Origin: Corallococcus caeni
GTDB lineage: Bacteria > Myxococcota > Myxococcia > Myxococcales > Myxococcaceae
NCBI RefSeq assembly: GCF_036245865.1
Contig: NZ_BTTW01000008.1
Span: forward strand, 1 to 32,395
Length of the DNA stretch: 32,395 nt
Reading direction: 5' to 3'
Under the pieces are notes generated by a model. The model was not told where the DNA came from. It saw only the letters and a list, made by a program, of their open reading frames with translations, and searched no databases. Both the position numbers and the translations under genes were made by a program. This document shows positions 467 through 30,801 of the stretch, one piece after another (position 1 is the stretch's first letter; each line of letters opens with the position of its first letter).

Positions 467-542
467 AGGCCAGTAGCTCCAACGGTAGAGCAGCGGTCTC
501 CAAATCCGCGTGTTGGGGGTTCGAATCCCTCCTGGCCTGCCA
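467..542 (+). tRNA. trnW: tRNA-Trp (anticodon CCA), encoded 3' CCA included
   Basis: Acceptor stem AGGCCAG/CTGGCCT. Anticodon loop is cuCCAaa. T-arm is GGTTCGAATCC. Canonical tuf-tRNATrp-secE-nusG arrangement. Confidence 0.9.
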
Positions 543-4400: not shown

Positions 4401-4483
4401 CCATTTGACATTTGCCAAATTTCCCGGCGCCGCCGCGCGTTACTGAAGTTTGCCCCGCCCGAGCAGCCGTCCCCGGAGACCGA

Positions 4484-8710
<4,227 letters not shown>

Positions 8711-8842: not shown

Positions 8843-13054
<4,212 letters not shown>

Positions 13055-16258: not shown

Positions 16259-17017
16259 ATGTCCCGCATCACTTCCTCCTGCTTCCTCGCGTTCGCGCTC
16301 GCGTCGGCGGGCTGCGCGCACGTCCCCACGGAGAAGGAGCGCCGGAGCTCGGAGATCCACTACGACCTGGGCATCCAGGCCCAGCAGCACGGCCATGTGC
16401 AGGACGCGCTCGCGGAGTACCAGAAGGCGCTGGAGCAGAACCCGGACAACCCGGAGGCCCACAACGCGGTGGGGCTCCTGCTGCACCTGTCCTTCCGGCG
16501 GCTCGACGAGGCGTCGTCCCATTACGAGCAGGCGCTGAAGCTGCGGCCGTCCTTCTCCGACGCGCGCACCAACCTGGGCAACCTGCGCCTGGACCAGGGC
16601 CGCTACGACGACGCCATCAAGCTGTACGAGGAGTCGCTCAACGACATGCAGTACCGCTACGGCTTCTCCGCGCAGAACAACATGGGCTGGGCCCTCTACA
16701 AGAAGGGCGACACGGTGAACGCGCTGCAGAACATCAAGGCGGCCATCACCACCAACCCGGACTTCTGCCTGGGCTACAAGAACCTGGGTATCATCTACGA
16801 CGAGACGGGCAAGACGGAGGAGGCGTGCCGGCAGTTCGCGCACTACCGTGAGAAGTGCCCGGACGTGGCGGAGGCCTACCAGCGCGAAGGCGTTTGCCAG
16901 GCGAAGCTCGGGCGGGTGGACGAGGCGAAGGCTGCGTTCGCGGGCTGCGAGTCCAAGGCCCAGCCCAACGAGCAGGTGCTCAAGGACGACTGCCGCTCAC
17001 TGCTGGACCACCTCTAG
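16259..17017 (+). CDS. TPR-repeat outer-membrane lipoprotein (PilF/Tgl-like), Cys-rich C-terminus
   Basis: MSRITSSCFLAFALASAG|C carries a lipobox. At least 5-6 TPR units (AEYQKALEQNPDNPEAHNAVGLLL..., YEQALKLRPSFSDARTNLGNL..., GRYDDAIKLYEESL..., ALQNIKAAITTNPDF..., CRQFAHYREKCPDVAEAY...). Six Cys in the last ~70 aa. Size, lipoprotein type and position a few genes downstream of rpoC fit the Myxococcus social-motility lipoprotein Tgl, recalled from memory only. The 450-aa track ORF from 15665 is rejected. Confidence 0.75.
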   Translation: MSRITSSCFLAFALASAGCAHVPTEKERRSSEIHYDLGIQAQQHGHVQDALAEYQKALEQNPDNPEAHNAVGLLLHLSFRRLDEASSHYEQALKLRPSFSDARTNLGNLRLDQGRYDDAIKLYEESLNDMQYRYGFSAQNNMGWALYKKGDTVNALQNIKAAITTNPDFCLGYKNLGIIYDETGKTEEACRQFAHYREKCPDVAEAYQREGVCQAKLGRVDEAKAAFAGCESKAQPNEQVLKDDCRSLLDHL

Positions 17018-17038
17018 GCGCGGGGGCCCCGAAAGACC

Positions 17039-17425
17039 GTGGACCACGTCGACTTCGGCAAATACCTCAGCCAGCAGCGCGAGCTTCGCGGCCTGTCGCG
17101 CGAGGACGTCTCCCGGGAGACGAAGATTCCCCCCAGCCTCGTCGCGGCGCTGGAGGCGGGGCAGGTGGAGCGGCTGCCCGAGCGCGTGTTCGTGCTGAAC
17201 TACATCCGCGCGTACGCGCAGGTCATCGGCCTGTCGCCGGAGGAAGCGGCGCTGCGCTACGAGGAGGTGGACCGGGCCGTGCCCGCGCCTTCGCCGGTGC
17301 AGCTCGAGAAGGAGCGGCGCAAGCGGGCGTACATCATCCTGGCCGTGCTGCTGGCGGTCCTGCTCCTGGGCGCGGCCCTGTTCCTGGTGCTGTCCGGGAA
17401 GCTTCCGCCCCCCACGGCGCGTTGA
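17039..17425 (+). CDS. Small HTH (XRE/RodZ-N-terminal-like) protein with a C-terminal transmembrane helix
   Basis: The HTH is ...LSQQRELRGLSREDVSRETKIPPSLVAALEAG.... The C-terminal membrane helix is AYIILAVLLAVLLLGAALFLVLSG. GTG start. Confidence 0.55.
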   Translation: MDHVDFGKYLSQQRELRGLSREDVSRETKIPPSLVAALEAGQVERLPERVFVLNYIRAYAQVIGLSPEEAALRYEEVDRAVPAPSPVQLEKERRKRAYIILAVLLAVLLLGAALFLVLSGKLPPPTAR

Positions 17426-17434
17426 AGAGGGGTT

Positions 17435-18169
17435 ATGGAGCGGTACGCCGACGACGCGTTCGTGCTGTCCACGGTCGACTATGGTGAGTCCGACCGGATG
17501 GTGACGTTGCTGACGCGCGAGCACGGCAAGCTGACCGCGTTCGCCGCGGGAGCGCGCAAGAGCAAGCGCCGGTTCGCGGGGGCGCTGGAGCCGTTCATGC
17601 GGCTGCGCGTGCAGCTCGTGGAGACGCGCGGCAGCACGGTGCGGTTGGACTCGGCGGACATCGTTGCGGGCTTCTACGCCGCGCGCGAGGACCTGTCGCT
17701 CATCGCCCGGGCGCTGTACGCGGTGGAGCTGTGCCGCGAGCTCACGCGCGACCATGAGCCGCACCCGGAGCTGTTCGAGCTGGTGGAGGGCTACCTGCAC
17801 CGGCTGGACGCGAAGGAGGCCGGGCCCACGTCGTTGCTTGCGTTCGAGCTGGCGGCGCTGGCGCAGGCTGGCTTGATGCCGCGCTTCGACTCCTGCTCCC
17901 TGTGTGGCGGCCAGCCCGGTGAGCGGCCCCGGTTCGATCAAGGCCACGGTGGCGCGGTGTGCGAGCCGTGTGGCGGACGCGCGCGTGATTCCGTGGCGGT
18001 GCCGGTGGCGCTGCTGTCCGGCCTGCGGTCGCTCCAGGAAGGCGCGCGCACGCCGCTGCCTCCGGACCTTCGCGCTCGGGCGCGGGGACTGCTCAACGTC
18101 TTCATCGCGCACCACCTGGGCCGCAAGCTCAAGAGCGTGGACTTCATGGCGCAGGTGGGCCTGGACTGA
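17435..18169 (+). CDS. recO: DNA repair protein RecO
   Basis: MERYADDAFVLSTVDYGESDRMVTLLTREHGKLTAFAAGARKSKRRFAGALEPF... is a RecO N-terminal OB fold. The C-terminal zinc-finger cysteines are CSLCGG...CEPCGG. Confidence 0.9.
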   Translation: MERYADDAFVLSTVDYGESDRMVTLLTREHGKLTAFAAGARKSKRRFAGALEPFMRLRVQLVETRGSTVRLDSADIVAGFYAAREDLSLIARALYAVELCRELTRDHEPHPELFELVEGYLHRLDAKEAGPTSLLAFELAALAQAGLMPRFDSCSLCGGQPGERPRFDQGHGGAVCEPCGGRARDSVAVPVALLSGLRSLQEGARTPLPPDLRARARGLLNVFIAHHLGRKLKSVDFMAQVGLD

Positions 18170-18204
18170 CGACTGTCAGCGCGCGGTCCCGAGGGGGCAG
18201 TGTC

Positions 18205-19230
18205 ATGCACGAGGCCGGACCGCTGGACGTGGTGTGTGTCGGCGAGACGCTGGTGGACTTCCTTCCCGTGTCGGGCGGCGCCACGCGCGTGCGAGACGTG
18301 GAGGCCTGGAAGCCATCGCCGGGGGGCTCGCCGGCCAACGTCTCCGTGGGGCTTGCGCGGCTGGGCTTGCGCTCGGCGATGGTGGGCGTGGTGGGCTCCG
18401 ACGAGTTCGGTCACTTCCTGCGCGACCGGCTGGCGGCGGACGGCGTGGACGTCAGCCGCCTGCGCCAGGTGGACCACGCCCGCACGGGCCTGCTGTTCGT
18501 CTCGTTGGATGCGCACGGCGAGCGCAGCTTCACGTACTTCCGGACGCGTTCGGCGGAGTTCCTGCTGGATGACTCGGACGTGGATGGCGACTTCGTGCGC
18601 CGTGCGAAGGCGCTGCACTGTGGCTCCAACTCCCTGCTCCTGCCGGAGGCGCGCGAGGCGATGGTGCGCATGCTCACCCTGGCGCGTGAGGCCGGGATGC
18701 TGGTGAGCTGTGATCCGAACCTGCGGTTGCACGTGTGGGAACGGCCGGAGGAGCTGCGCGTCCTCCTGGGCCGCATGCTGCCGCTGTGCACGGTGGTGAA
18801 GCTGTCCGAGGAGGAGATCCACTTCGCGACCGGCGAGCACTCGCCCGAGGCGGCTTTGCACGTCCTGGCCGCTCGGGGCGTGCGGCTGCCCGTGGTGACG
18901 CTGGGCCCTCGCGGCGCGGTGTTCCTCTGGCAGGGGGAGGTCCTCTCCGTACCCGCTCCCCAGGTGACGGTGGTGGACACGACGGGCGCTGGGGACGGCT
19001 TCGTGTCCGCGATGTTGACCGGGCTGGTGCGGTGGTACGGCGACGCGCGCTCGCTGGAAGGGGCGACGCGCGAGGACCTGGTCGCGCTGATGACCTTCGC
19101 CGCGGCCGTGGGGGCTCGGGTCGTGACGAAGCTGGGCGCGGTCGCGGCGCTCCCGTTGGCGTCCGAGGTCGAGGGGCTGCTGCCCACGCGGCCTTCCATG
19201 GCCGACGCCGCGCGACGCATCGCGCGCTGA
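18205..19230 (+). CDS. PfkB-family carbohydrate kinase (fructokinase/KdgK-like)
   Basis: GGSPANVSVGLARLG (N-terminal substrate lid) and VVDTTGAGDGFVSAML (ATP/anion-hole motif) are the ribokinase/PfkB hallmarks. 341 aa. Confidence 0.85.
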   Translation: MHEAGPLDVVCVGETLVDFLPVSGGATRVRDVEAWKPSPGGSPANVSVGLARLGLRSAMVGVVGSDEFGHFLRDRLAADGVDVSRLRQVDHARTGLLFVSLDAHGERSFTYFRTRSAEFLLDDSDVDGDFVRRAKALHCGSNSLLLPEAREAMVRMLTLAREAGMLVSCDPNLRLHVWERPEELRVLLGRMLPLCTVVKLSEEEIHFATGEHSPEAALHVLAARGVRLPVVTLGPRGAVFLWQGEVLSVPAPQVTVVDTTGAGDGFVSAMLTGLVRWYGDARSLEGATREDLVALMTFAAAVGARVVTKLGAVAALPLASEVEGLLPTRPSMADAARRIAR

Positions 19231-19308
19231 CGGGAAGCGCCGTGCCGGGTCAGGCTCGCGTGCTTCGCTGCGTCCGCCGTGGCCCACCATCCCACGCAGG
19301 AGGGACCG

Positions 19309-20598
19309 ATGAGTGACACCCGAGAGACCTCTTCCTCCACCCCGTCGCGGGTCCGGGGATTGGAGCAGATCGACCGGCTGTCCGTGCCCCTGCCGCACGG
19401 CACGGAGGTCACGACGCGCGTGGAGCGCGTGGCGTCCGCGGGGCGCCGGATTCCGCAGGGCGTGGTTGGCCGCGTGGTGCGCGCGCATGACGGCGGCTTC
19501 GACGTGCAGATCGTCGGCGTGGGCGAGGTGTGGTTCGCGCGCGATGAGCTGGTCCCCCGGCGCGCGGGACAGGTGCAGTTCGCCCAGCGTCGCGAGGCGG
19601 CCTGGGGCGCTCTGCGGCCCTGCGTCGTGCTGGAGACGCGCGTGGGCAGTCACGCGTGGGGGCTCGCGGACGAGCGCTCCGACGTGGACGTTCGCGGTGT
19701 CTTCGCGCTGCCCCTGCCGTGGACGCTGGGCCTGGGGCAGCCGCCGCAGGACCTGGTGAGCGCGGATGGCAGCACCACGTACTGGGAGGTCCGCAAGACG
19801 GTGGAGCAGGCGCTGCGCGCGGATCCGAACACGCTGGAGACCCTCTTCGTCCCTGGCGCGACGGCGGTGGACGAGCTGGGCACGTGGGTGCTGGAGGCGC
19901 GCGAGGCGTTCGTCTCCAAGGCCATCTTCGGCAGCTTCGGACGCTACGCCATGAGCCAGCTCGACAAGCTCACCCGTAGCCAGCGGCTGGCCGAGCACCG
20001 CGACCTGCTCCTCGCGTGGCTGTGCGAGGAGCCCACGCCGGACCTGGACGAGGTGGCCCGGCGTCTGGCCGCCGTGTCGCCCCGCGCCGCGCCCACGCCC
20101 GAGGACGGGGTGCTCGCGGCGAAGACGTATGTCAAGCAGCTCTACCGCTCGCTCTGGGATCAGGGGCTGCTCGCGGCGAACGACTTCGCGGCGCTCACGG
20201 CGTACGCGCGCGGCGGTGGCCAGCGTCCGCCGTCCGCTCGGGAGCTGCGGCCGAAGAACGCCTACAACCTGCTGCGGCTGGTGGCGCTGGCGACGGGGTG
20301 GTTGCGCGACGGCGTGCCGACCTTCGAGGCGACGGGGGCGCTGAAGGCGCGGCTGCTCGACATCAAGGGCGGACAGGTGCCTCTGGAGGACGTGCTGCGC
20401 GACGCCGAGGCGATGGCGCCGGGGCTGGAGGCCGCGCACCGCGAGAGCCGGCTGCCGGAGCACCCGGACTACGCCCGCGCGGACCGGCTGCTGCGGCGGG
20501 TAGGGGACGAGGTGGCTCGGCGCTGGGTCTTGAAGACGCCGGGACCGCTGGGCCGCGATGCGCCGGAAGCCCCGGCACTGGAAGGAGGGACGGAATGA
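19309..20598 (+). CDS. Pol-beta-superfamily nucleotidyltransferase (PF10127/RlaP-like core) with an unassigned N-terminal domain of about 110 aa
   Basis: ATG at 19309 is 4 nt after GGAGGG. NTase signature VGSHAWGLADERSDVDVRGVF (GS at 19645, DxD at 19681-19689). Downstream KNAYNLLRLVALATGWLRDG is a helix block typical of PF10127 as remembered. Stop overlaps the next ATG (ATGA). Confidence 0.65.
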   Translation: MSDTRETSSSTPSRVRGLEQIDRLSVPLPHGTEVTTRVERVASAGRRIPQGVVGRVVRAHDGGFDVQIVGVGEVWFARDELVPRRAGQVQFAQRREAAWGALRPCVVLETRVGSHAWGLADERSDVDVRGVFALPLPWTLGLGQPPQDLVSADGSTTYWEVRKTVEQALRADPNTLETLFVPGATAVDELGTWVLEAREAFVSKAIFGSFGRYAMSQLDKLTRSQRLAEHRDLLLAWLCEEPTPDLDEVARRLAAVSPRAAPTPEDGVLAAKTYVKQLYRSLWDQGLLAANDFAALTAYARGGGQRPPSARELRPKNAYNLLRLVALATGWLRDGVPTFEATGALKARLLDIKGGQVPLEDVLRDAEAMAPGLEAAHRESRLPEHPDYARADRLLRRVGDEVARRWVLKTPGPLGRDAPEAPALEGGTE

Positions 20599-21383
20599 AG
20601 GGCAAGGTGACGGACCATCAGGAGCGGATGGCGGACCGCGTGCTGGACGCCGAGTCCCTCCAGCGCGAGCACCTGGTCATCTCACTGTCCGGCGCGCATG
20701 CGTACGGCTTCCCGTCGCACGACAGTGACCTGGACCTCAAGGCCATCCACATCGCGCCCACCGCCGCGCTCCTCGGTCTCCAGCCCCGGCACGTGCCGGC
20801 GGAGCGGCTGGAAGTGCTGGAGGGCGTGGAGGTGGACTACTCGTCCAACGAGCTGCAGCCCGTGCTGCTGGGCATTCTCCAGGGCAACGGCAACTACATC
20901 GAGCGGGTGCTGGGCGCCATCACCGTGCGGGCCCTGCCGGAGCTGGAGACGCTGCGACCGCGGGTTCGCGCCGTGCTGTCGCGGCGCATCCACCGGCACT
21001 ACCGCGGCTTCGCGCAGGGGCAGCTCCGCGAGTGGGAGAAGAGCGGCTTCCGCTCCGTGAAGAAGCTGCTGTACGTCCTGCGCACCACGCTCACCGGAAC
21101 GCATGCGCTGCGCACGGGCGAGGTGGAGACGGACGTCACCGCGCTGCTGGAGCCGTATGGCTTTGGCGAGGCCCACGCGCTGGTGGAGCGCAAGCGGCGC
21201 GGCGAGCGCATCGAGTTGACCGACGCGCTCAGCGAACAGTGGCAGCGGGAGGTGGCGCGCGCCTTCGCGGTGCTCGAGGCGGCGGACGCGGCCTCCATGT
21301 TGCCCCTGGAGCCACAGCCGGCGGCCGTGGCCGCGCTCGAGGGCTGGATGCTCGACGTGCGGCGACAGCGGTTCGGCGCCTAA
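20595..21383 (+). CDS. Pol-beta-superfamily nucleotidyltransferase (PF10127/RlaP-like), core-only paralog
   Basis: ATG 6 nt after GGAGG. LSGAHAYGFPSHDSDLDLKAIH (G at 20691, D-x-D at 20727-20735). KKLLYVLRTTLTGTHALRTG is the paralogous C-terminal helix. 262 aa. The track start at 20016 is rejected. Confidence 0.65.
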   Translation: MKGKVTDHQERMADRVLDAESLQREHLVISLSGAHAYGFPSHDSDLDLKAIHIAPTAALLGLQPRHVPAERLEVLEGVEVDYSSNELQPVLLGILQGNGNYIERVLGAITVRALPELETLRPRVRAVLSRRIHRHYRGFAQGQLREWEKSGFRSVKKLLYVLRTTLTGTHALRTGEVETDVTALLEPYGFGEAHALVERKRRGERIELTDALSEQWQREVARAFAVLEAADAASMLPLEPQPAAVAALEGWMLDVRRQRFGA

Positions 21384-21477: not shown

Positions 21478-23763
21478 ATGAGCATGCAGGGTGGCGCCGG
21501 AGAAGATCCCGACCGGGGGCGGCGCATCGGAAAGTACGAGATCCTCACCCGCCTTTCGATGGGAGGGATGGCGGAGCTGTTCCTCGCGTTCACCTCCGGC
21601 CCCGGTGGCTTCCGCAAGTTCGTGGCGGTGAAGCAGATCCTCCCCGACATCAAGAAGGACGACCAGTTCGTCAAGATGTTCCTGGACGAGGCGCGCATCA
21701 CCGCGGCCTTCTCGCACGCGAACATCGGACAGGTTTTCGACCTGGGGGAGGAGGACGGCGAGCTGTACCTCGCCATGGAGTTCCTGCCCGGCCAGAACCT
21801 GGAGCAGGTGGTGAAGATGGCGGAGCGGCGCAAGTACGCGCTGCCGCTGGGCTTCTGCGCGCGCGTCATCCGCGACACGTGCCTGGGCCTGCACTACGCC
21901 CACCACTTCATGGATCCGTCGGGCCGCCCCGTGGCGGTGGTGCACCGCGACGTGTCGCCGAAGAACGTGATGCTCACCTACGACGGCGTCGTGAAGGTGA
22001 TCGACTTCGGCATCGCCAAGGCGCGCGGCAAGCTGGGCCGCACCCAGGTCGGCACCGTGAAGGGGACCAGCGGCTACATGTCCCCGGAGCAGGTGCGCAA
22101 CAAGGACCTGGATGGCCGCAGCGACCAGTTCTCCACGGGCGTGATGTTCCACGAACTGCTGGCCGGTCAGCGCCTGTTCAACGCGCCGGGCGAGGCGGCC
22201 GTGATGATGCAGATCGTGGACGGGGAGATCCCCGCGCCGCGCTCGCTCAACCCGGCCGTGCCGGAGGCCCTGGAAGCGGTGGTGCTCAAGGCGCTGTCGC
22301 GCGACGCGGCCCAGCGCTTCGGCACCTGCCGGGAGATGGCGCGCGCCATCGAGGCCACGCTGGGCGCCGAGCTGTTCGACGAAGACCAGCTGACCGCCGT
22401 CATGGGCGAGCTCTTCGAGGAGAAGCGCCAGAAGACGCGCACCCTCCTGGAGCTGGCCAGCCGCGCCGAGGACGCCCGCGTCAGCGAGGCCGCCGGCGCG
22501 CTCCAGGCGGAGGAGGGCACGGATCAAGCCGCCTCCGCGGCCACCGCGCAGGTGAAGTCGCCGCACGCGGAAGCCCCGCAGCCGGACGTCGCCGCGTCCT
22601 TCAAGCCCACGCCCGTCCGCCGCGCCGCGGCCGAGTCCGCGACGCCCGCACCGCGCGCGACCCCGCGCTCCACCGCGGAAGCCCCAGAGGCCCGCGCCTC
22701 CCGCGTCAACACGCCGGCCGTGACTCCGCGAGCCCAACGGCCCGCGGGTTCGGACGCGGCGCCCATTCCCCGGGTCATCCGTCCTCCCGCGGACGCCGTG
22801 CGGCCCTCCAGGGCACGCCCCACCGCGCGGCCCGAACCCGCCGAAGCCCGGAGCGCGCCCCCGGCGGACTCGCTGATGGACCCGCCCAGCGATCTCCAGA
22901 CGCAGCGCTTCCGGACGCGTCCGGCGCGGGGCACCGCACGTCCGTCCCGCCAGGCGGAGGAGGAGGTGGCCGAAGCGCCTCCCTCGGCCACGCCTGCCCG
23001 CGAGGGCTCCGGCTGGGGCATGCGGCTGCTGCTGCTGCTCATCCTGGGGGGCGTGGGCTACCTGGCGACGCTCGAACCCGTGCGCCGCGTGTTCATGCCC
23101 GCGTACGACTCCGCGAAGCAGTGGGTGAAGGCGGAGCTGGATCCGGCCCCGCCCGTGGACCCCGCCGCGAGCGGGCAGTGGCCGCCGAAGCCCTCCGGTC
23201 CTCCGCCGGGCTTCGCGCAGAAGACCGAAACCCCGGCGCCCGAGAAGTCGCCGGAGGTGGAGCCGACTCCGCCCGAGCCCGTGGTGGAGGCGACGCCCGC
23301 CGACACGAAGAAGACGCCCGCGGGGAAGGGGGGCCGCAAGACGAAGCCGGCCCCCAGCGCTCCGGCCGCCACTCCCACCACGCCCGTGGTGGCGGCGACG
23401 GCCGAGCCGCGCCCCGCGAAGCCCGAGCCGTCGGAGCGGGCCCCGGAGCCCGTCACCACCGTCACGCAGGCCGAGAACCCGGAGGTGCTGGACACCTCCA
23501 CCTCGAAGGGCGCGGCGAAGGCGGGCCTGGGGTGGCTGACGCTTTACACGGTGCCAAAGAACGCGGCGGTGTTCGACGGCGCCACGCAGCTGGGCACGTC
23601 CCCGCTGATCAAGTTCCCCCTGCCCATCGGGACGTACCGGCTGCGCGTGGTGGACCCGCAGGACCCCGGCGGAACGAGCAAGCTGTTGTCCGCTCCCATT
23701 CGTCCGGGCGAGGTGACGAAGCTGCAGATTCGACTGGTCGACCTCCCGGCCTACGCGGACTGA
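21478..23763 (+). CDS. Ser/Thr protein kinase with a Pro/Ala-rich linker, single TM helix and C-terminal PEGA domain
   Basis: Hanks motifs GKYEILTRLSMGGMAELF (Gly loop), VAVK, HRDVSPKNVML, DFGIAK, GTSGYMSPE. TM helix is GWGMRLLLLLILGGVGYLATL (~23019-23080). PEGA-like C-terminus is GWLTLYTVPKNAAVFDGATQLGTSPLIKFPLPIGTYRLRV. Confidence 0.9.
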   Translation: MSMQGGAGEDPDRGRRIGKYEILTRLSMGGMAELFLAFTSGPGGFRKFVAVKQILPDIKKDDQFVKMFLDEARITAAFSHANIGQVFDLGEEDGELYLAMEFLPGQNLEQVVKMAERRKYALPLGFCARVIRDTCLGLHYAHHFMDPSGRPVAVVHRDVSPKNVMLTYDGVVKVIDFGIAKARGKLGRTQVGTVKGTSGYMSPEQVRNKDLDGRSDQFSTGVMFHELLAGQRLFNAPGEAAVMMQIVDGEIPAPRSLNPAVPEALEAVVLKALSRDAAQRFGTCREMARAIEATLGAELFDEDQLTAVMGELFEEKRQKTRTLLELASRAEDARVSEAAGALQAEEGTDQAASAATAQVKSPHAEAPQPDVAASFKPTPVRRAAAESATPAPRATPRSTAEAPEARASRVNTPAVTPRAQRPAGSDAAPIPRVIRPPADAVRPSRARPTARPEPAEARSAPPADSLMDPPSDLQTQRFRTRPARGTARPSRQAEEEVAEAPPSATPAREGSGWGMRLLLLLILGGVGYLATLEPVRRVFMPAYDSAKQWVKAELDPAPPVDPAASGQWPPKPSGPPPGFAQKTETPAPEKSPEVEPTPPEPVVEATPADTKKTPAGKGGRKTKPAPSAPAATPTTPVVAATAEPRPAKPEPSERAPEPVTTVTQAENPEVLDTSTSKGAAKAGLGWLTLYTVPKNAAVFDGATQLGTSPLIKFPLPIGTYRLRVVDPQDPGGTSKLLSAPIRPGEVTKLQIRLVDLPAYAD

Positions 23764-24845: not shown

Positions 24846-26946
24846 TCTGCTGCTGGAGGTCGGCGCCGAGGAGATCCCGGCGTCGTTCATCGTGCCCGCG
24901 CTGGAGGACCTGAAGCGCGTGCTCACCGAGCGCATGGCCGACGCCCGCCTGAAGCACGGCGAGGTGCGCACGTTCGGAACGCCGCGCCGGCTGGCCATCT
25001 GGGTCCGCGACGTGGCGGACGCGGGAGAGGACATCACGAAGGAGGTGCTGGGGCCCAGCGCCAAGGCCGCCTTCGACGCGCAGGGCAAGCCCACCAAGGC
25101 GGCGGAGAAGTTCGCCGAGGGGCTCAAGCTGACCGTGGACGCGCTCGGCCGCACGACGACGGCCAAGGGCGAGTACGTGTCGGCGCGCGTGGAGGAGAAG
25201 GGACGCCCGGCGGACGCCATCCTCCAGGATGCGCTGCACGCCGCGGTGCACGGCATCAACTTCAAGAAGTCCATGCGCTGGGGGGACGTGGACACGTCCT
25301 TCGCGCGCCCGGTGCAGTGGCTGGTGGCGCTGCTGGGTGACACGGAGCTGGCGGTGGTGCTCGGCGACGTGAAGAGCGGACGGACGACCTACGGCCACCG
25401 CTTCCTCGCGCCGGGGCCCATCCCGCTGAAGGCGCCCGCGGACTACGAGTCCACGCTGGAGAAGGCGCACGTGCTGGCGGACCTCGGCAAGCGCCGCGCG
25501 TCGCTCGTGGAGAAGCTGCACGCCGCGGCGAAGGGCGCCGGCGGGCAGCTCATGGAGGACGAGGGACTGGTGGACCAGGTGACGAACCTGGTGGAGCTGC
25601 CGAACCCCGTGGTGGGCAGCTTCGACCCGCGCCACCTGGACCTGCCGCCGGAGGTGCTGGTGCAGGAGATGAAGAGCCACCAGCGCTACTTCTCGCTGCT
25701 GGACGCGCAGGGGAAGCTGCTGCCGCGCTTCATCGCCGTGTCCAACACGCCGGTGCGCGACGCGCAGCTGTCCCTGCGTGGGTACGAGCGCGTGCTGCGC
25801 GCGCGGCTCGCGGACGGGCGCTTCTTCTTCGACGAGGACCGCCGCACGCCGCTGGCCGACCGCGTGGAGAAGCTGGGCCGCGTGGTGTGGCAGGGCCAGC
25901 TGGGCACGTACCTGGAGAAGGTGGAGCGCTTCCGTGCGCTGGCGGGCTTCCTGGCCCAGGCCACGGGCAGGGCAGGGGAGGCGGCCACGGTGGAGCGCGC
26001 CGCCACGCTGTCCAAGGCGGACCTCGTCACCGGCATGGTGGGCGAGTTCCCGGAGCTCCAGGGCGTGATGGGCCGCGAGTACGCGAAGGCGGGCGGCGAG
26101 CCCGACGCGGTGGCGCTGGCCATCTTCGAGCACTACCTGCCCCGCGGCGCCGAGGACGCGCTGCCGTCGCAGGACGCGGGCGCGCTCATCGGCCTGGCGG
26201 ACCGGCTGGACTCGCTGTGCGGCATCTTCGCCATTGGCAAGGCGCCGTCGGGCGCGGCGGATCCGTTCGCGCTGCGCCGCGCGTGCCTGTCCATCATCCG
26301 CATCGTGCTGGGGCGCGGCTACCGCTTCAGCCTTTCGGCCGCGGTAGACGAGGCGCTGCGCCTCCTGGCCCCGAAGCTGGCGAACGTGAAGCGCAAGCCG
26401 GGCGAGGCGGCCCCGCGTGAGCAGGTGCTGGAGTTCTTCCGCGGCCGCCTCAAGGCGCTGTGGGGCGAGCAGCACCGCACGGACGTCGTGGAGGCCGTGC
26501 TGGCCGTGGGCTTCGACGACCTCGTCGCGGCGAAGAAGCGCCTGGAGGCCCTGAGCCTGCTCGTGGGCCACTCGGACTTCCAGCCGCTGGCGGCGGCGTT
26601 CAAGCGCGTGGTCAACATCGTGGAGAAGCAGGGCAAGGACGTGGCGGGCGGGCAGACCAACCCGCAGCGCTTCACGGACGAGCCGGAGAAGAACCTCCAC
26701 ACCGCCTTCACCCAGGCCCGCGACAAGGTGGGCGAGCGCGTGCGCGCGGACGACTTCGCCGGGGCGCTCAAGGAGATCACCGGCCTGAAGCCCGCCGTGG
26801 ACACCTTCTTCGACAAGGTGATGGTGATGGCCGAGGACAAGGACCTGCGGGAGAACCGCATCCGGTTCCTCACGGAGATTGGCGCCCTGTTCAACCAGGT
26901 GGCGGACTTTTCCAAGATCCAGGCCGAAACCGCTGCGGCGGCCTGA
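24835..26946 (+). CDS. glyS: Glycine--tRNA ligase beta subunit
   Basis: GTG start overlaps the glyQ 3' end by 11 nt. (M)[29 protein letters not shown]... is the GlyS N-terminus. 703 aa. Confidence 0.95.
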
Positions 26947-27115
26947 GGCCCGGTCGCCCGTTCACCGCTGGCGCGTGCCCGCTTTCCCGCCAGGGGAGCG
27001 GCGCACGCCGTCCGTGCGGGGGGGAGGGATGTCGGGAGGAGGGCGGCCGGGAATAGTGACAGCCCTATTCAGTTGCCCGGCGCAGGGCGTCGTTCCTACA
27101 CTCCGCCCCCCTCTG

Positions 27116-28645
27116 ATGCGCCTCCATTTCCTGACCCCCGCGCTGCTGCTCCTCGGAGCGTGTTCGCTCGAATCCGATCCGAACCCGCCTCCATCCACCC
27201 GCTTCGTGTACCCCAGCGGGGTGGCGTTCTGGCGCCCTCCGACGGCGGGAGGGCCCTCGGCGAGCAACGGCTATCTCTTCGTCGCGAACGCCAACTTCGA
27301 CAACTGCTACGACTCCGGTTCGGTCGTGGCACTGAACCTGGACGCACTGAGCACGCAGGTGGACGGGCAGCCGGTGACGGTGCCCCACCTGGGCAGTGTG
27401 CTCCCGGAGTCCGCGCTCGCCTTCGAGGACCTGGCGTCCGCGGACGAGTCGCTCGTGCAGATCCGCAGCTTCGCGGGTGAGCTGGGCCTGTGGGTGAACC
27501 CGGCCAGCGGGCTGCCGCGCCTGTTCGTGCCGTCGCGCGCGGAGGGCAACGACCTGCACGCGGTGGACGTGAGCCTGGATGGCAACGGCGCGCCGGTGCT
27601 CAACTGCGTGCAGGGCGGCGTGGACTGCCGCGACGGCGCGCTGTCGCTCACCGACGACATCCCGGCGTCCTTGAGCGAGGCGGGCCGGCCGGGCCTGCCC
27701 CGTGCCCCGTCGCCCATCGGCGTGACGGTGGATGCGGCGAGCGGCACGCTGTACGTGACGCACTCCGAGGCGGCGGACTCGCCCGCGAAGTCCAGCACCA
27801 ACTTCGAGAACTACCTGGCCACGGTGAAGCTGGACAACCCCACGCGCGACACGCTGGGCTTCATCCCGCTGTCGCCCGACGGCTACCTCTACGGCGGCTC
27901 GGACTCCGTGACGGTGGGCGCAGGCTACCTCTACGTGACGGGCCGCAACTTCGTGGCCGGCATCAACGGCACGGTGGCCGCCAACTTCGTGCTGCGGCTG
28001 GTGGACAAGAACGAGCCCGGCATCATCCTGGAGCCCGCACTGCAGTCGGTCTTCAGCATCCGCGAGGCGCGCGCGGCGCGCGTGGTGCCCCGGCCGGTGA
28101 CGGCGGCGGAGCGGGCGGCGCGTCCGAACTTCGTGCGCGAGCGGCTCTACATGCTGGCGCGCGGCCCGGACACGCTGCTCACCCTCGACTTCGAATACGA
28201 CGCGGTGCCGGGCACCGCCGCCACCCAGCCCTTCTTCCGCGTGGTCTCCGCGGTGCCCCTGCCGGACGGCGTGAGCGACATGCAGCTCATCGAGCGGACG
28301 CCGGGCACGTCCAACGCGGACACCAACATCCTCGCGGTGACGAGCACGGGCGACAGCGCGGTGTCCCTCTACGACGAGGCGCTCGGGCAGGTCGTGGCGC
28401 AGGTGCCGCTCGTCAACAACCTCAACCAGACCAGCAACCCGTCGCAGGCCTTCGGGCTCGCGGTGGACAACCCGGCCGGGACGAACGCGGCGCGGCTGTT
28501 CGTGACCAACTTCGGTGACGGACAGGTGTCCATCGTGGACATCCCCGACCTCGCGCGCCCCCAGGACGCGAGGCTGGTGGCGAGGCTGGGCACGCAGCAA
28601 CAGCGCGATCCGAACCAGGGCACCAGCGTGTGCCAGGAGAACTGA
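27116..28645 (+). CDS. YVTN-family beta-propeller lipoprotein
   Basis: MRLHFLTPALLLLGA|CSLES carries a lipobox. Repeated YVTN-type beta-propeller blades: YLFVANANFDN...GSVVALNL, RLFVPSRAEGNDLHAVDVS, TLYVTHSEA, YLYVTGRNF, ARLFVTNFGDGQVSIVDI. The track start at 26879 is rejected. Confidence 0.75.
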   Translation: MRLHFLTPALLLLGACSLESDPNPPPSTRFVYPSGVAFWRPPTAGGPSASNGYLFVANANFDNCYDSGSVVALNLDALSTQVDGQPVTVPHLGSVLPESALAFEDLASADESLVQIRSFAGELGLWVNPASGLPRLFVPSRAEGNDLHAVDVSLDGNGAPVLNCVQGGVDCRDGALSLTDDIPASLSEAGRPGLPRAPSPIGVTVDAASGTLYVTHSEAADSPAKSSTNFENYLATVKLDNPTRDTLGFIPLSPDGYLYGGSDSVTVGAGYLYVTGRNFVAGINGTVAANFVLRLVDKNEPGIILEPALQSVFSIREARAARVVPRPVTAAERAARPNFVRERLYMLARGPDTLLTLDFEYDAVPGTAATQPFFRVVSAVPLPDGVSDMQLIERTPGTSNADTNILAVTSTGDSAVSLYDEALGQVVAQVPLVNNLNQTSNPSQAFGLAVDNPAGTNAARLFVTNFGDGQVSIVDIPDLARPQDARLVARLGTQQQRDPNQGTSVCQEN

Positions 28646-28647
28646 CC

Positions 28648-30801
28648 TTGAAGCGCGGCTTTCTTGCGGCCCTGTTGCTGAGCGGCGCGAGCCTCGCGCT
28701 CGCCTGCTCCGACACCACCTCCACCGCGGGCGCCGCCGGCCTGTCCGGCACGTACGACGTGGTGCTCTCCAACCAGCTCGTCTTCGTCACCTCCCAGGAC
28801 CGGGATGAGCTGCGCGTGCTGGACCTGACGCGCTCGCCGCGTGAGTTCCTCCCCGCGCCCAACCCGCTGGAGCCCCTGTCCATCCCCGTCATCGCGCGGC
28901 CCGACTCGCTCACCCGCGACGTGGGCTACGACGCCACCGGCAACGACGTGTCCGGGCCGTACATCTACGCGCGCAGCTCCGGTGGCCGCGGCATCTCCGT
29001 GGTGGCCGCGGACCGCGCGCGCCTCAACGAGGTGACGCGCCTGGCGACCGGCCAGCTCATCACCGCCTTCGCCGCGCATGCCCCGGTGGCGGACGGCGCG
29101 CCGAGCGTCCTGTACTACGCGCTCCAGACGCGCCCGGCGGCCGCCGAGCAGCTCTGCGGCCCCTTCGGCGGCGGCGTGGTGATGCGCCAGGACCTGCCCG
29201 GCCCGGAGGGCTTCGACGCGGCCGCGCTGCCGCCCGCGCTGCCCGTGTTCTGCCTCAAGCCGGCGGACACCGTGCTGTCCATGATCACGCTGCCCGCGCG
29301 GGCCAACGTGACGGACTCGCTGGTGCTCGCCATCCGCAACGTGTCCGGCACCAGCCGGCTGGTGCGCGCCGCCGCGGACGGGGCCTCCGTGGAGATTCCG
29401 TACAAGCGGCCGCGTCCGGTCCCCTACGCGGTGCCCACGTACACGGACCTCATCGACATCCCGGCGCGGCTCGTGGCCACGCACGCCAGCTTCAAGGTGT
29501 CGGACACGGTGACCGTGCCCGCGGGCCGCTTCGTGTACGTGGTGCTGGATGAGCTGACGTGCAACTCGTCGGACTGCGAGGGCGTCATCGCGCTCGACAA
29601 CGGGCCGGATCCCCTGGCGCCCTCCACGGCGCCGGCGCTCGCCCGGGACATCACCGGCGCGCCCATGCTGACCCTGAAGCCGTCCGCGGGCCTGCCCACG
29701 GGCCTCACGCTGCGCACGGGCCTGGAGGTCCGCGAGCTGCTGTCGGACGGCGTGGCCTACACCACCCCCGTGCCGCTGCTGGGCATCGTGCCGTCCTCCA
29801 GCGGGGAGATCACCCTGTTCCGCGCGGACGAGCGGCGCGCGTTCAACCTGGACCGCGACCCCAAGACGGGCCCGCTGAAGGCGTCCGTGTCCGCGGAGCT
29901 TCGCGACAGCAACGAGGCCGTGCGCGCGGATCAGTTCCAGGCCATCACCGTGTCGGAACCGGGCTGCCCCCAGGTGCAGGACGCGACCAACGCCACCGCG
30001 TTCCTCTGCAGCGGGACGGTGCCCAACGGCACCTACCGCTTCGTCTTCCAGGGCGCGCTGCCTGGCCTGACCAGCCTCACGCGCGACCTGACCGTGGAGG
30101 ATGCTCCGATCCTCATCGAGACCACCCTGGCGACGTCGCGAGGCGTGGTGCCCGGGGACTCCATCGTGCTGGCGAACAACGCGGGCGCCTGCGCGACGGC
30201 CATCCCCATCCTCCGCCTGGAGGACCAGGGCAACGGCCTCACGCGGCTCTACCCGGACCTGTCCGACCCGGCCATCGCCACCGCGGTGGAGCCCTGCGCC
30301 TCGTACCCGCTCTTCTCCGTGCGGGCCGGTCCGAACGTGAAGCCCTACCTGCTCTATGCCGGCGCGGAGAGCAGCGGTTCTTTCATCCAGCGGCTGGATG
30401 TGAACGAGCCGTACACCGTCTCCAGCTTCCTGGACTACTACGCCCACCCGGACGACTTCGACCTGGGGTTGGACCCGCCCAAGTCACCCACCACCTACGT
30501 GCCCGCGCCGCTGACGCTCACCATGACCGCGACCATCGGTGCGCAGAGCCGACTGGTGGCCGGTGACCGCTACGTGGTGACGCTGCTGCCGCGCTTCCGC
30601 CGCTTCGTCTTCGGGGTGGACACCGGCTCGTCGAGCAACCTGGCGGTCTACACCCTGCCTGCTTCCGTGGTGGCCACGGACGTGGAGGGCTCCAGCCTGG
30701 CCTTCATCGCCTACCCCTCCGCGGACGGCATCCTCCAGGTGGCCCTGGAGTCCATCAGCGACAACGCGAAGAACCTCCAGTATCTCCGGGCCTTCCAGTA
30801 A
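28648..30801 (+). CDS. Large lipoprotein of unknown function (717 aa), coupled to the upstream beta-propeller lipoprotein
   Basis: TTG start 8 nt after AGGAGA and 2 nt after the upstream stop gives MKRGFLAALLLSGASLALA|CSDTT, a textbook lipoprotein signal. The in-frame GTG at 28630 is the alternative. One N-terminal YVTN-like blade (QLVFVTSQDRDELRVLDL). The rest is unassigned. Multiple Cys pairs. Confidence 0.7.
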   Translation: MKRGFLAALLLSGASLALACSDTTSTAGAAGLSGTYDVVLSNQLVFVTSQDRDELRVLDLTRSPREFLPAPNPLEPLSIPVIARPDSLTRDVGYDATGNDVSGPYIYARSSGGRGISVVAADRARLNEVTRLATGQLITAFAAHAPVADGAPSVLYYALQTRPAAAEQLCGPFGGGVVMRQDLPGPEGFDAAALPPALPVFCLKPADTVLSMITLPARANVTDSLVLAIRNVSGTSRLVRAAADGASVEIPYKRPRPVPYAVPTYTDLIDIPARLVATHASFKVSDTVTVPAGRFVYVVLDELTCNSSDCEGVIALDNGPDPLAPSTAPALARDITGAPMLTLKPSAGLPTGLTLRTGLEVRELLSDGVAYTTPVPLLGIVPSSSGEITLFRADERRAFNLDRDPKTGPLKASVSAELRDSNEAVRADQFQAITVSEPGCPQVQDATNATAFLCSGTVPNGTYRFVFQGALPGLTSLTRDLTVEDAPILIETTLATSRGVVPGDSIVLANNAGACATAIPILRLEDQGNGLTRLYPDLSDPAIATAVEPCASYPLFSVRAGPNVKPYLLYAGAESSGSFIQRLDVNEPYTVSSFLDYYAHPDDFDLGLDPPKSPTTYVPAPLTLTMTATIGAQSRLVAGDRYVVTLLPRFRRFVFGVDTGSSSNLAVYTLPASVVATDVEGSSLAFIAYPSADGILQVALESISDNAKNLQYLRAFQ

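Follow-up and report, generated by a model that had tools for sequence, protein, structure and literature searches.

We analysed a 32,395-nt stretch of the genome of Corallococcus caeni (contig NZ_BTTW01000008.1, positions 1 to 32,395; hereafter the window), in which a PfkB-family kinase gene and two nucleotidyltransferase genes, named here NT1 and NT2, lie between recO and a Ser/Thr kinase (STK) gene. The products of NT1 and NT2 (the A and B subunits) are best explained as two subunits of one heteromeric, two-active-site RlaP-type RNA 3'-end nucleotidyltransferase, to which the PfkB kinase would be unrelated. We give this explanation a probability of about 0.55, the RNA substrate being proposed by analogy.

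Domains and active sites of NT1 and NT2

Hidden Markov model searches assigned both nucleotidyltransferases to PF10127, the RlaP family, with scores above its gathering cut-off of 23 bits (Table 1), and the kinase to PF00294, as an earlier note on this DNA had expected; all orthologues are likewise annotated as PF10127. NT1 and NT2 are distant paralogues, with 26% identity over 119 aa. Each carries the pol-beta signature, i.e. G[SA], DxD and a third acidic residue, of which the first two read G113-S-H-A-W-G ... S124-D-V-D127 in NT1 and G33-A-H-A-Y-G ... S44-D-L-D47 in NT2, while candidates for the third are listed in Table 1. A helix of the form K..(Y/L).L(L/R)....TG is common to both proteins (RPKNAYNLLRLVALATG in NT1, KKLLYVLRTTLTG in NT2) and is conserved in both families. 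The description of the pair as paralogous pol-beta nucleotidyltransferases with intact active sites and a shared helix, given in the same note, is thus borne out. Neither protein matched the NTP_transf_2, KNTase_C or ANT models of Pfam and NCBIfam at E <= 0.1, nor did NCBIfam return any match for them; sequence and profile searches of the PDB found no relatives, and no solved structure is close.

In the aligned orthologues, distant homologues and halves of natural fusion proteins (described below), the A-type proteins share the motifs VGSxAW..SDxDxRG, YWE, FGRYA and RPKNAYNLLRL, and the conserved motifs of the B-type proteins are G[AS]HxYGFxSxDSDxDLK, ExD, GNGNxxER, HYxGF and KxLLYxxRxxLTGxH. 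As the catalytic motifs are conserved across orthologues, distant homologues and fusion halves, both active sites are under selection, and there is no sign that NT1 or NT2 is an inactive copy kept for regulation. In NT2, a HEPN-like Rx4-6H motif (RRIHRH) was considered and rejected, its arginine not being conserved across the family.

The open reading frame (ORF) of NT1 spans 19279-20598, with a likely start at the ATG at 19309. The resulting product of 429 aa is 100% identical to one C. caeni protein, equal in length and sequence to the database protein P0001. Several NT1 orthologues (P0002, P0007-P0014 and others) are named 'UDP-phosphate N-acetylglucosaminyl 1-phosphate transferase' or 'Undecaprenyl-phosphate ...' in NCBI and UniRef. 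Considering that their sole Pfam domain is PF10127, these names are probably a propagated misannotation, and the present analysis corrects them.

The AlphaFold2 models of NT1 and NT2 (predicted local distance difference test, pLDDT, 84.7 and 90.9) both present an N-terminal nucleotidyltransferase lobe followed by a C-terminal helical lobe. The model of NT2 is compact, with these two lobes. That of NT1 presents an N-terminal SH3/KOW-like barrel, the pol-beta core and a long HEPN-like helical domain, and a helical insert at about aa 225-300 also contributes to its extra length. Only one of the two enzymes had been said to carry a large extra N-terminal domain. Such a domain is indeed present in NT1, but it is not large, with about 60 structured residues inside an extension of roughly 100 aa. 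This barrel probably targets an RNA or ribonucleoprotein (RNP) substrate.

Foldseek comparison of the NT2 model with solved structures gave 3c18, ANT(4')/KNTase, HalB, AadA, AAD(9) and LinB, with E values of about 1e-4; the fold matches of NT1 among solved structures were HalB, ANT(4'), LinB and SH3/KOW proteins. The pair could on this basis be an ANT/Lnu-type small-molecule nucleotidyltransferase heterodimer, devoted to antibiotic inactivation or metabolite modification, in which the substrate would be held between the nucleotidyltransferase lobe of one protein and the helical lobe of its partner. ANT(4')/KNTase, AadA, AAD(9) and LinB are the closest solved folds, sharing the nucleotidyltransferase lobe and the helical lobe, and myxobacteria share their habitat with antibiotic producers. 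KNTase functions as a dimer whose substrate sites are composite, and an A+B pseudo-dimer would have a structural precedent in such a site built by dimerisation. Nevertheless, the matches are weak (TM-score of 0.4 at the above E values), and the ANT(4') relatives are homodimers acting on small molecules and encoded by resistance genes, whereas NT1 and NT2 stand outside their sequence families, as the Pfam results indicate, and belong to a phylum-wide core. Moreover, NT1 remains at least 62% identical from Corallococcus to Sorangium, which is more in keeping with a conserved cellular substrate than with a resistance gene, the homologous pair of Deinococcus is found between Hen1 and Pnkp, and the RlaPs tested so far accept RNA only (PMC12776372). 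A small-molecule substrate is, therefore, quite improbable.

Coupling, conservation and natural fusion of the pair

The start codon of NT2 overlaps the stop codon of NT1 as ATGA, as had been read from the sequence before, and a GGAGG sequence is placed 7 nt upstream of the NT2 start (Table 1). A scan with the NT1 alignment over one genome per species gave 334 relatives, of which the best 80 loci, with 62-99% identity across Myxococcota, were used for the locus counts. They span Corallococcus, Myxococcus, Pyxidicoccus, Archangium, Cystobacter, Hyalangium, Anaeromyxobacter, Labilithrix and Sorangium, and the NT1-NT2 set comprises the Myxococcaceae, Archangiaceae, Anaeromyxobacteraceae and Polyangiaceae together with Labilithrix. 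NT2 is directly downstream of NT1 in 68 of the 80 genomes. Of these 68 paired loci, 55 have a projected NT2 start that overlaps the stop of NT1 (mostly by -4 or -1), and in 11 more the gap is at most 50 nt.

An exhaustive HMMER search with NT1 among 1.84 billion cluster representatives led to 2758 matches. About 20 representatives (50% identity clusters), of 640-725 aa, are fusions of NT1 and NT2, with an NT1-like N-terminal half (33-40% identity, barrel included) and an NT2-like C-terminal half (36-46% identity). Scanning of metagenomes with the fusion alignment gave more than 552 relatives, and on contigs L084 and L086-L092 the fusion is confirmed in the DNA itself, as single ORFs of 673-740 aa; contig L085 carries a split or truncated ORF of 541 aa, and on most other metagenomic contigs the A and B genes are adjacent and overlapping. 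In the alignments both active sites show no variation, whether the two proteins are split or fused. An A-type gene directly followed by, or fused to, a B-type gene is thus found in the window, in the 68 genomes, in the fusions and in Deinococcus.

The fusions and the conserved start/stop overlap strongly indicate that NT1 and NT2 act as one 1:1 unit. The two genes are translationally coupled and their products almost certainly act together, as the earlier note had proposed from this one locus, and the same features suggest a physical association, which may take the form of a heterodimer.

On the other hand, NT1 and NT2 could be independent enzymes that share an operon, for example two RNA-tailing enzymes of different specificity acting in sequence, like the split CC-adding and A-adding enzymes. 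The complete catalytic motifs of both proteins are consistent with this, as are NT1 without NT2 in a Hyalangium-like clade, B-type genes alone in actinomycetes and single RlaPs in phages. The fusions in many lineages and the near-universal start/stop overlap point, however, to a 1:1 stoichiometry and to physical association, and this makes fully independent enzymes rather unlikely. Sequential action inside one complex would be compatible with the heteromeric enzyme favoured here.

The loci with a single partner are the following. On contigs L042-L050 and L066 (Hyalangium-like and other Myxococcota), an NT1 of 73-77% identity is found with no NT2 within about 8 kb downstream, the next gene after NT1 in the Hyalangium-like clade being convergent and purine-nucleoside-phosphorylase-like. 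Embleya (L167:5983-6729) and Nonomuraea (L168:5971-6693) present B-type nucleotidyltransferases, 50-54% identical to the Deinococcus B protein, with no detectable A-type gene alongside; both records are actinomycete chromosomes, though PLSDB lists them as plasmids. Phage genomes contained single A-like or B-like RlaP copies only, and offer no precedent for the pair. In the record BNCN01000014.1 (L014), titled 'Comamonas sp. KCTC 72670', NT1 and NT2 are 87% and 75% identical to those of the window and in synteny with Myxococcus loci; this assembly is probably mislabelled or contaminated.

Relation to RNA repair

That Pnkp/Hen1 repairs RNA in bacteria is established (PMC4411300). A plasmid protein search with the fusion sequence identified loci on three Deinococcus megaplasmids. 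The annotated regions of D. gobiensis and D. ficus (NC_017791.1 and NZ_CP021083.1) have the order Hen1, nucleotidyltransferase A, nucleotidyltransferase B and Pnkp with 4-nt overlaps, and the search match in D. taeanensis (NZ_CP083459.1) has two nucleotidyltransferase genes next to Hen1. The earlier statement that RlaP-like genes otherwise occur as single accessory genes of Pnkp-Hen1 cassettes has to be given up, since the Deinococcus cassettes carry the A+B tandem. The likeness to the window extends from the A-then-B order and the 4-nt overlaps to the proteins, which the Deinococcus records name just 'nucleotidyltransferase domain-containing protein'. The A protein (304-318 aa) is 32-34% identical to NT1 and possesses the N-terminal barrel and the VGSxA..SDxD motif, and the B protein (259-264 aa) is 30-35% identical to NT2 over the full length, with the GAHxYGFPSxDSDxDL and E.D motifs and the K.LLY..R..LTG helix. 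The Deinococcus A is, however, about 110 aa shorter than NT1, lacking the helical insert at about aa 225-300, and its pair is inside the Pnkp/Hen1 cassette whereas the Myxococcota pair stands alone. On the D. ficus plasmid pDFI2, an additional gene (L165:8700-9413), encoding a hypothetical protein of 237 aa without Pfam match, is found between B and Pnkp, its start and stop codons overlapping with those of its neighbours; the D. gobiensis operon lacks it.

The name RlaP was reportedly given by Burroughs and Aravind in 2016 in Nucleic Acids Research (NAR). Two Pseudomonas RlaPs, PfRlaP and PaRlaP, encoded in RtcB-RlaP-RtcA operons, have been described in a 2025 preprint (PMC12776372) to add 1-2 nucleoside monophosphates (NMP) to the 3'-OH of RNA; they favour broken-tRNA mimics and Mn2+, are inactive on DNA and proteins, and were proposed to restore the nucleotides removed by 'smart' ribotoxins before ligation. 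These proteins and T4 NrdC.11 (PMC12776372) share PF10127 with both NT1 and NT2, and the fold reported there, with an N-terminal pol-beta lobe, a C-terminal helical lobe, a cleft and three conserved acidic residues, resembles that of the window proteins. The characterised RlaPs are single proteins beside an RNA ligase, whereas the window has two paralogues, coupled here and fused elsewhere, no ligase nearby, and in NT1 the added SH3/KOW-like barrel and helical insert.

When 150 genes lying within two positions of the pair at about 70 diverse metagenomic loci were annotated with Pfam, no recurrent partner emerged: Glyco_hydro_25 occurred 5 times and any other family at most twice, and no RNA ligase, RtcB, Pnkp or Hen1 was among the 25 most frequent of the 108 matched neighbour families. 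Since no recurrent partner was found, the pair is self-contained in most lineages. The only traces of Hen1 are fragments, on contig L069 and at the edge of L136. In the first, a metagenome-assembled genome of Archangiaceae (L069:3234-5563), a truncated Hen1_L ORF of 217 aa (PF12623, E 2.9e-62) lies 1.7 kb upstream of NT1, and after it comes a gene for a HEAT-repeat protein of 584 aa, the stop codon of which overlaps the start of NT1; the locus may preserve a Hen1-linked cassette of Myxococcota in a residual or variant form. At one metagenomic locus a Ro60/TROVE and vWA protein, an RNA quality-control factor, adjoins the pair, and the Glyco_hydro_25 neighbours, at five loci, are of the GH25 lysozyme family.

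The same survey bears on the idea that the pair serves defence or signalling, either as a nucleotidyltransferase that synthesises a nucleotide or oligonucleotide as a signal (Hailong HalB-like or CBASS-like) or as a toxin-antitoxin-like pair. The HalB fold is among the matches of both proteins. Nevertheless, PADLOC gave no matches for PfkB, NT1 or NT2, and neither an effector nor a recurrent partner was present among the 150 neighbours. The pair is vertically conserved across the phylum in varied contexts, and in the window it is inside a ribosomal/rpoBC/recO/glyQS block. It differs from the Hailong oligodeoxyadenylate synthase HalB, to which identity is only 13-16%, in having no HalA-like effector, no defence-island context and no PADLOC match, and fusions that retain both active sites argue against an antagonistic pair. 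The defence and toxin-antitoxin suggestion of the earlier note is not sustained, and we regard such roles as very unlikely.

Several observations weigh against the heteromeric RNA 3'-end enzyme that we favour. In the window, in the 80 genomes and at the approximately 70 metagenomic loci, no RNA ligase, RtcB, Rnl, Pnkp or complete Hen1 is adjacent to the pair, so an RNA-repair neighbourhood is found only for the homologous Deinococcus pair and the gene context that gave RlaP its name is absent in most lineages. The biochemistry of RlaP covers only single proteins from RtcB operons, another subfamily than NT1 and NT2. Finally, no NT2 is found within 8 kb of NT1 in the Hyalangium-like clade, and B stands alone in actinomycetes, so that pairing is not obligatory everywhere. 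As to the missing ligase, M. xanthus has several RtcB ligase paralogues, according to a passage in PMC10630183 that cites this; ligases encoded elsewhere could, therefore, complete the repair.

For the heteromeric RNA 3'-end nucleotidyltransferase, the following mechanism can be proposed by analogy with the characterised RlaPs. The two genes would be co-translated via the ATGA overlap, and each subunit would provide a complete G[SA]...DxD...acidic site and a HEPN-like helical lobe. The barrel of NT1 would direct the enzyme to RNA or RNP, where NT1 and NT2 would add one or few nucleotides, template-free, to the 3'-OH of damaged or trimmed RNA (cleaved tRNA, rRNA), and the extended ends would then be resealed or reused. 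The two different active sites may permit the ordered addition of two nucleotides, with a putative division of labour between the subunits.

The PfkB kinase and the surrounding locus

The PfkB translation shows the GG motif (PGGSPAN) and the anion hole DTTGAGD, both of which had been recognised as intact before. With its full-length PF00294 match and its GG and DTxGAGD motifs, the protein resembles PfkB/ribokinase-family sugar kinases such as fructokinase and IolC-like kinases, but its scores are far below every NCBIfam equivalog cut-off (fructokinase 218.5 versus 450, IolC 202 versus 300), so none of these specificities is assigned to it, and its gene is linked to recO rather than to the nucleotidyltransferases.

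The earlier note had seen in the three genes a small-molecule or nucleotide-sugar module of HldE-like logic, in which PfkB would phosphorylate a sugar or nucleoside and the two nucleotidyltransferases would nucleotidylate the product in a nucleotide-sugar or signal pathway. The three genes do adjoin one another on one strand, in the positions between recO and STK given there (Table 1), the gap of 78 nt between PfkB and NT1 is without predicted terminator, and the arrangement is kept in 12 Corallococcus loci. The common orientation is, however, uninformative because every gene of the window is on the + strand. When the window proteins were compared by tblastn with the best 80 NT1 loci, PfkB, recO, STK and glyQ were found to adjoin the nucleotidyltransferases only in these 12 Corallococcus-type loci, the pair being in other contexts in the 68 other genomes. 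Linkage of kinase and nucleotidyltransferases across lineages, as a HldE-like module would show, is therefore confined to Corallococcus. Conversely, Archangium violaceum presents the order rpoC ... TPR-HTH-recO-PfkB-STK-glyQ-glyS, with 48 nt from PfkB to STK, and Hyalangium versicolor the order recO-PfkB-STK-STK-glyQ-glyS, both without NT1 and NT2; in M. stipitatus, recO-PfkB is followed by other genes and NT1 and NT2 are absent at that locus. The triad whose conservation was in question is not conserved beyond Corallococcus: PfkB belongs to another block in relatives and the nucleotidyltransferases are unlinked from it, an outcome of the kind that the note had itself named as refuting its proposal.

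Outside Corallococcus, the nucleotidyltransferase pair is among unrelated genes, in a context varying by genus (Archangium, Anaeromyxobacter and Sorangium included): Myxococcus has a histidine kinase and glutathione reductase beside it, Archangium a DNA-alkylation-repair-like gene together with membrane proteins, and some other genomes have toxin-antitoxin pairs there. PfkB was not among the recurrent families, the 25 most frequent of 108, matched by the 150 neighbours of the pair. HldE uses cytidylyltransferase-type enzymes, and the PF10127 pol-beta proteins are not of this type. The PfkB loci of Archangium, Hyalangium and M. stipitatus without nucleotidyltransferases establish that PfkB is part of an old recO-PfkB-STK-glyQS block and a chance neighbour of the nucleotidyltransferases in Corallococcus, where the pair, of roughly 2.2 kb, came in between PfkB and STK. 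The kinase-linked pathway is largely refuted by this synteny, and its probability is now very slight.

The window is a Corallococcus chromosome segment of high GC content, about 70%, whose gene order (tRNA-Trp, nusG, rplKAJL, rpoB, rpoC, phasin, SLT, TPR, HTH_25, recO, PfkB, NT1, NT2, STK, glyQ, glyS, FHA and prepilin peptidase) is that of a core housekeeping block. All genes called over its whole length are on the + strand. Frame-specific GC content at third codon positions (GC3), 0.91-0.94, backs the reading frames of PfkB, NT1 and NT2. Two antisense ORFs opposite recO, PfkB and NT1 (16997-18115, 372 aa, and 17938-20463, 841 aa, both on the - strand) have a GC3 of only 0.76 compared to 0.91-0.94 for the sense frames and were rejected as high-GC artefacts. 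The promoter and terminator scan of the 17-22 kb region gave zero promoters and one antisense terminator-like site, and a repeat search found no direct repeats beside the nucleotidyltransferase insertion. Downstream of glyS, two + strand ORFs (26879-28645, 588 aa, and 28630-30801, 723 aa) have a GC3 of 0.92-0.96 and no Pfam match at E <= 0.001.

Table 1. Coordinates of the genes and sequence elements discussed, numbered from the first letter of the window.
Feature	Position	Strand	Remarks
tRNA-Trp	467-542	+	Only match of the Rfam and tRNA scans; far upstream of the nucleotidyltransferases
rpoB	4412-8710	+	
rpoC	8843-13054	+	
recO	17435-18169	+	Upstream flank of the three-gene stretch
PfkB-family sugar kinase	18205-19230	+	341 aa; PF00294, E 5.7e-64, aa 8-317; adjoining gene, not part of the nucleotidyltransferase unit
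AGGAGGG, Shine-Dalgarno-like	19298-19304	+	4 nt upstream of the NT1 ATG; read from the sequence
NT1 (A subunit)	19309-20598	+	429 aa; PF10127/RlaP, 72.5 bits; phrog_388 over aa 106-403
NT1 N-terminal five-strand barrel	19390-19563	+	aa ~28-85; LPHGTEV...GRV...ARDEL
NT1 catalytic motif, G113-S114 ... D125-x-D127	19645-19689	+	VGSxAW..SDxDxRG invariant in orthologues, distant homologues and fusion N-halves
NT1 E160 (YWE)	19786-19788	+	Probable third metal-binding carboxylate; predicted strand 156-160; W-E near-invariant, D153 not
NT1 RPKNAYNLLRL helix	20248-20280	+	Opens the distal helical bundle; no other stretch of the family is as conserved
Coupling site, GGAGG (20584-20588) then ATGA	20584-20598	+	NT2 ATG 20595-20597 overlaps NT1 TGA 20596-20598
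NT2 (B subunit)	20595-21383	+	262 aa; PF10127, 90.3 bits, full length; phrog_14344; pol-beta core and helical domain
NT2 catalytic motif, G33-A34 ... D45-x-D47	20691-20735	+	G[AS]HxYGFxSxDSDxDLK invariant in NT2 orthologues, fusion C-halves and Deinococcus B
NT2 E79-V-D81	20829-20837	+	Candidate third carboxylate(s); E and D invariant in B-type proteins and fusions; predicted strand 78-86
Ser/Thr kinase (STK)	21478-23763	+	Downstream flank

A new kinase-plus-dual-nucleotidyltransferase metabolic or signalling module should, then, not be claimed from this locus. A more far-reaching proposal concerns the pair itself, and we put it forward tentatively, the odds being somewhat against it. NT1 and NT2 might represent an undescribed class of RlaP, an obligate A+B heterodimer or fused pseudo-dimer with two live sites and an SH3/KOW-like targeting domain. 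Such an enzyme might have escaped from an ancestral Hen1/Pnkp operon and serve Myxococcota, phylum-wide and without ligase cassette, as a stand-alone housekeeping system of RNA 3'-end repair or tailing, e.g. by ordered two-nucleotide addition. In the literature within reach, which did not cover the 2016 naming paper, no coupled or fused A+B RlaP with an SH3/KOW-like domain is described, and PMC12776372 makes no mention of tandem or dimeric RlaPs.

RlaPs were characterised only in late 2025, as single proteins, whereas here a large branch of the family, with over 550 metagenome matches and 334 among species-representative genomes, consists of coupled or fused distinct paralogues with an extra SH3/KOW-like domain. 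The branch raises the questions of whether a two-site enzyme restores two-nucleotide losses or specific sequences at broken RNA ends, and of what the barrel targets. Tied to Pnkp/Hen1 repair in Deinococcus and kept alone across Myxococcota, the A+B branch is a testable target for the RNA-repair field.

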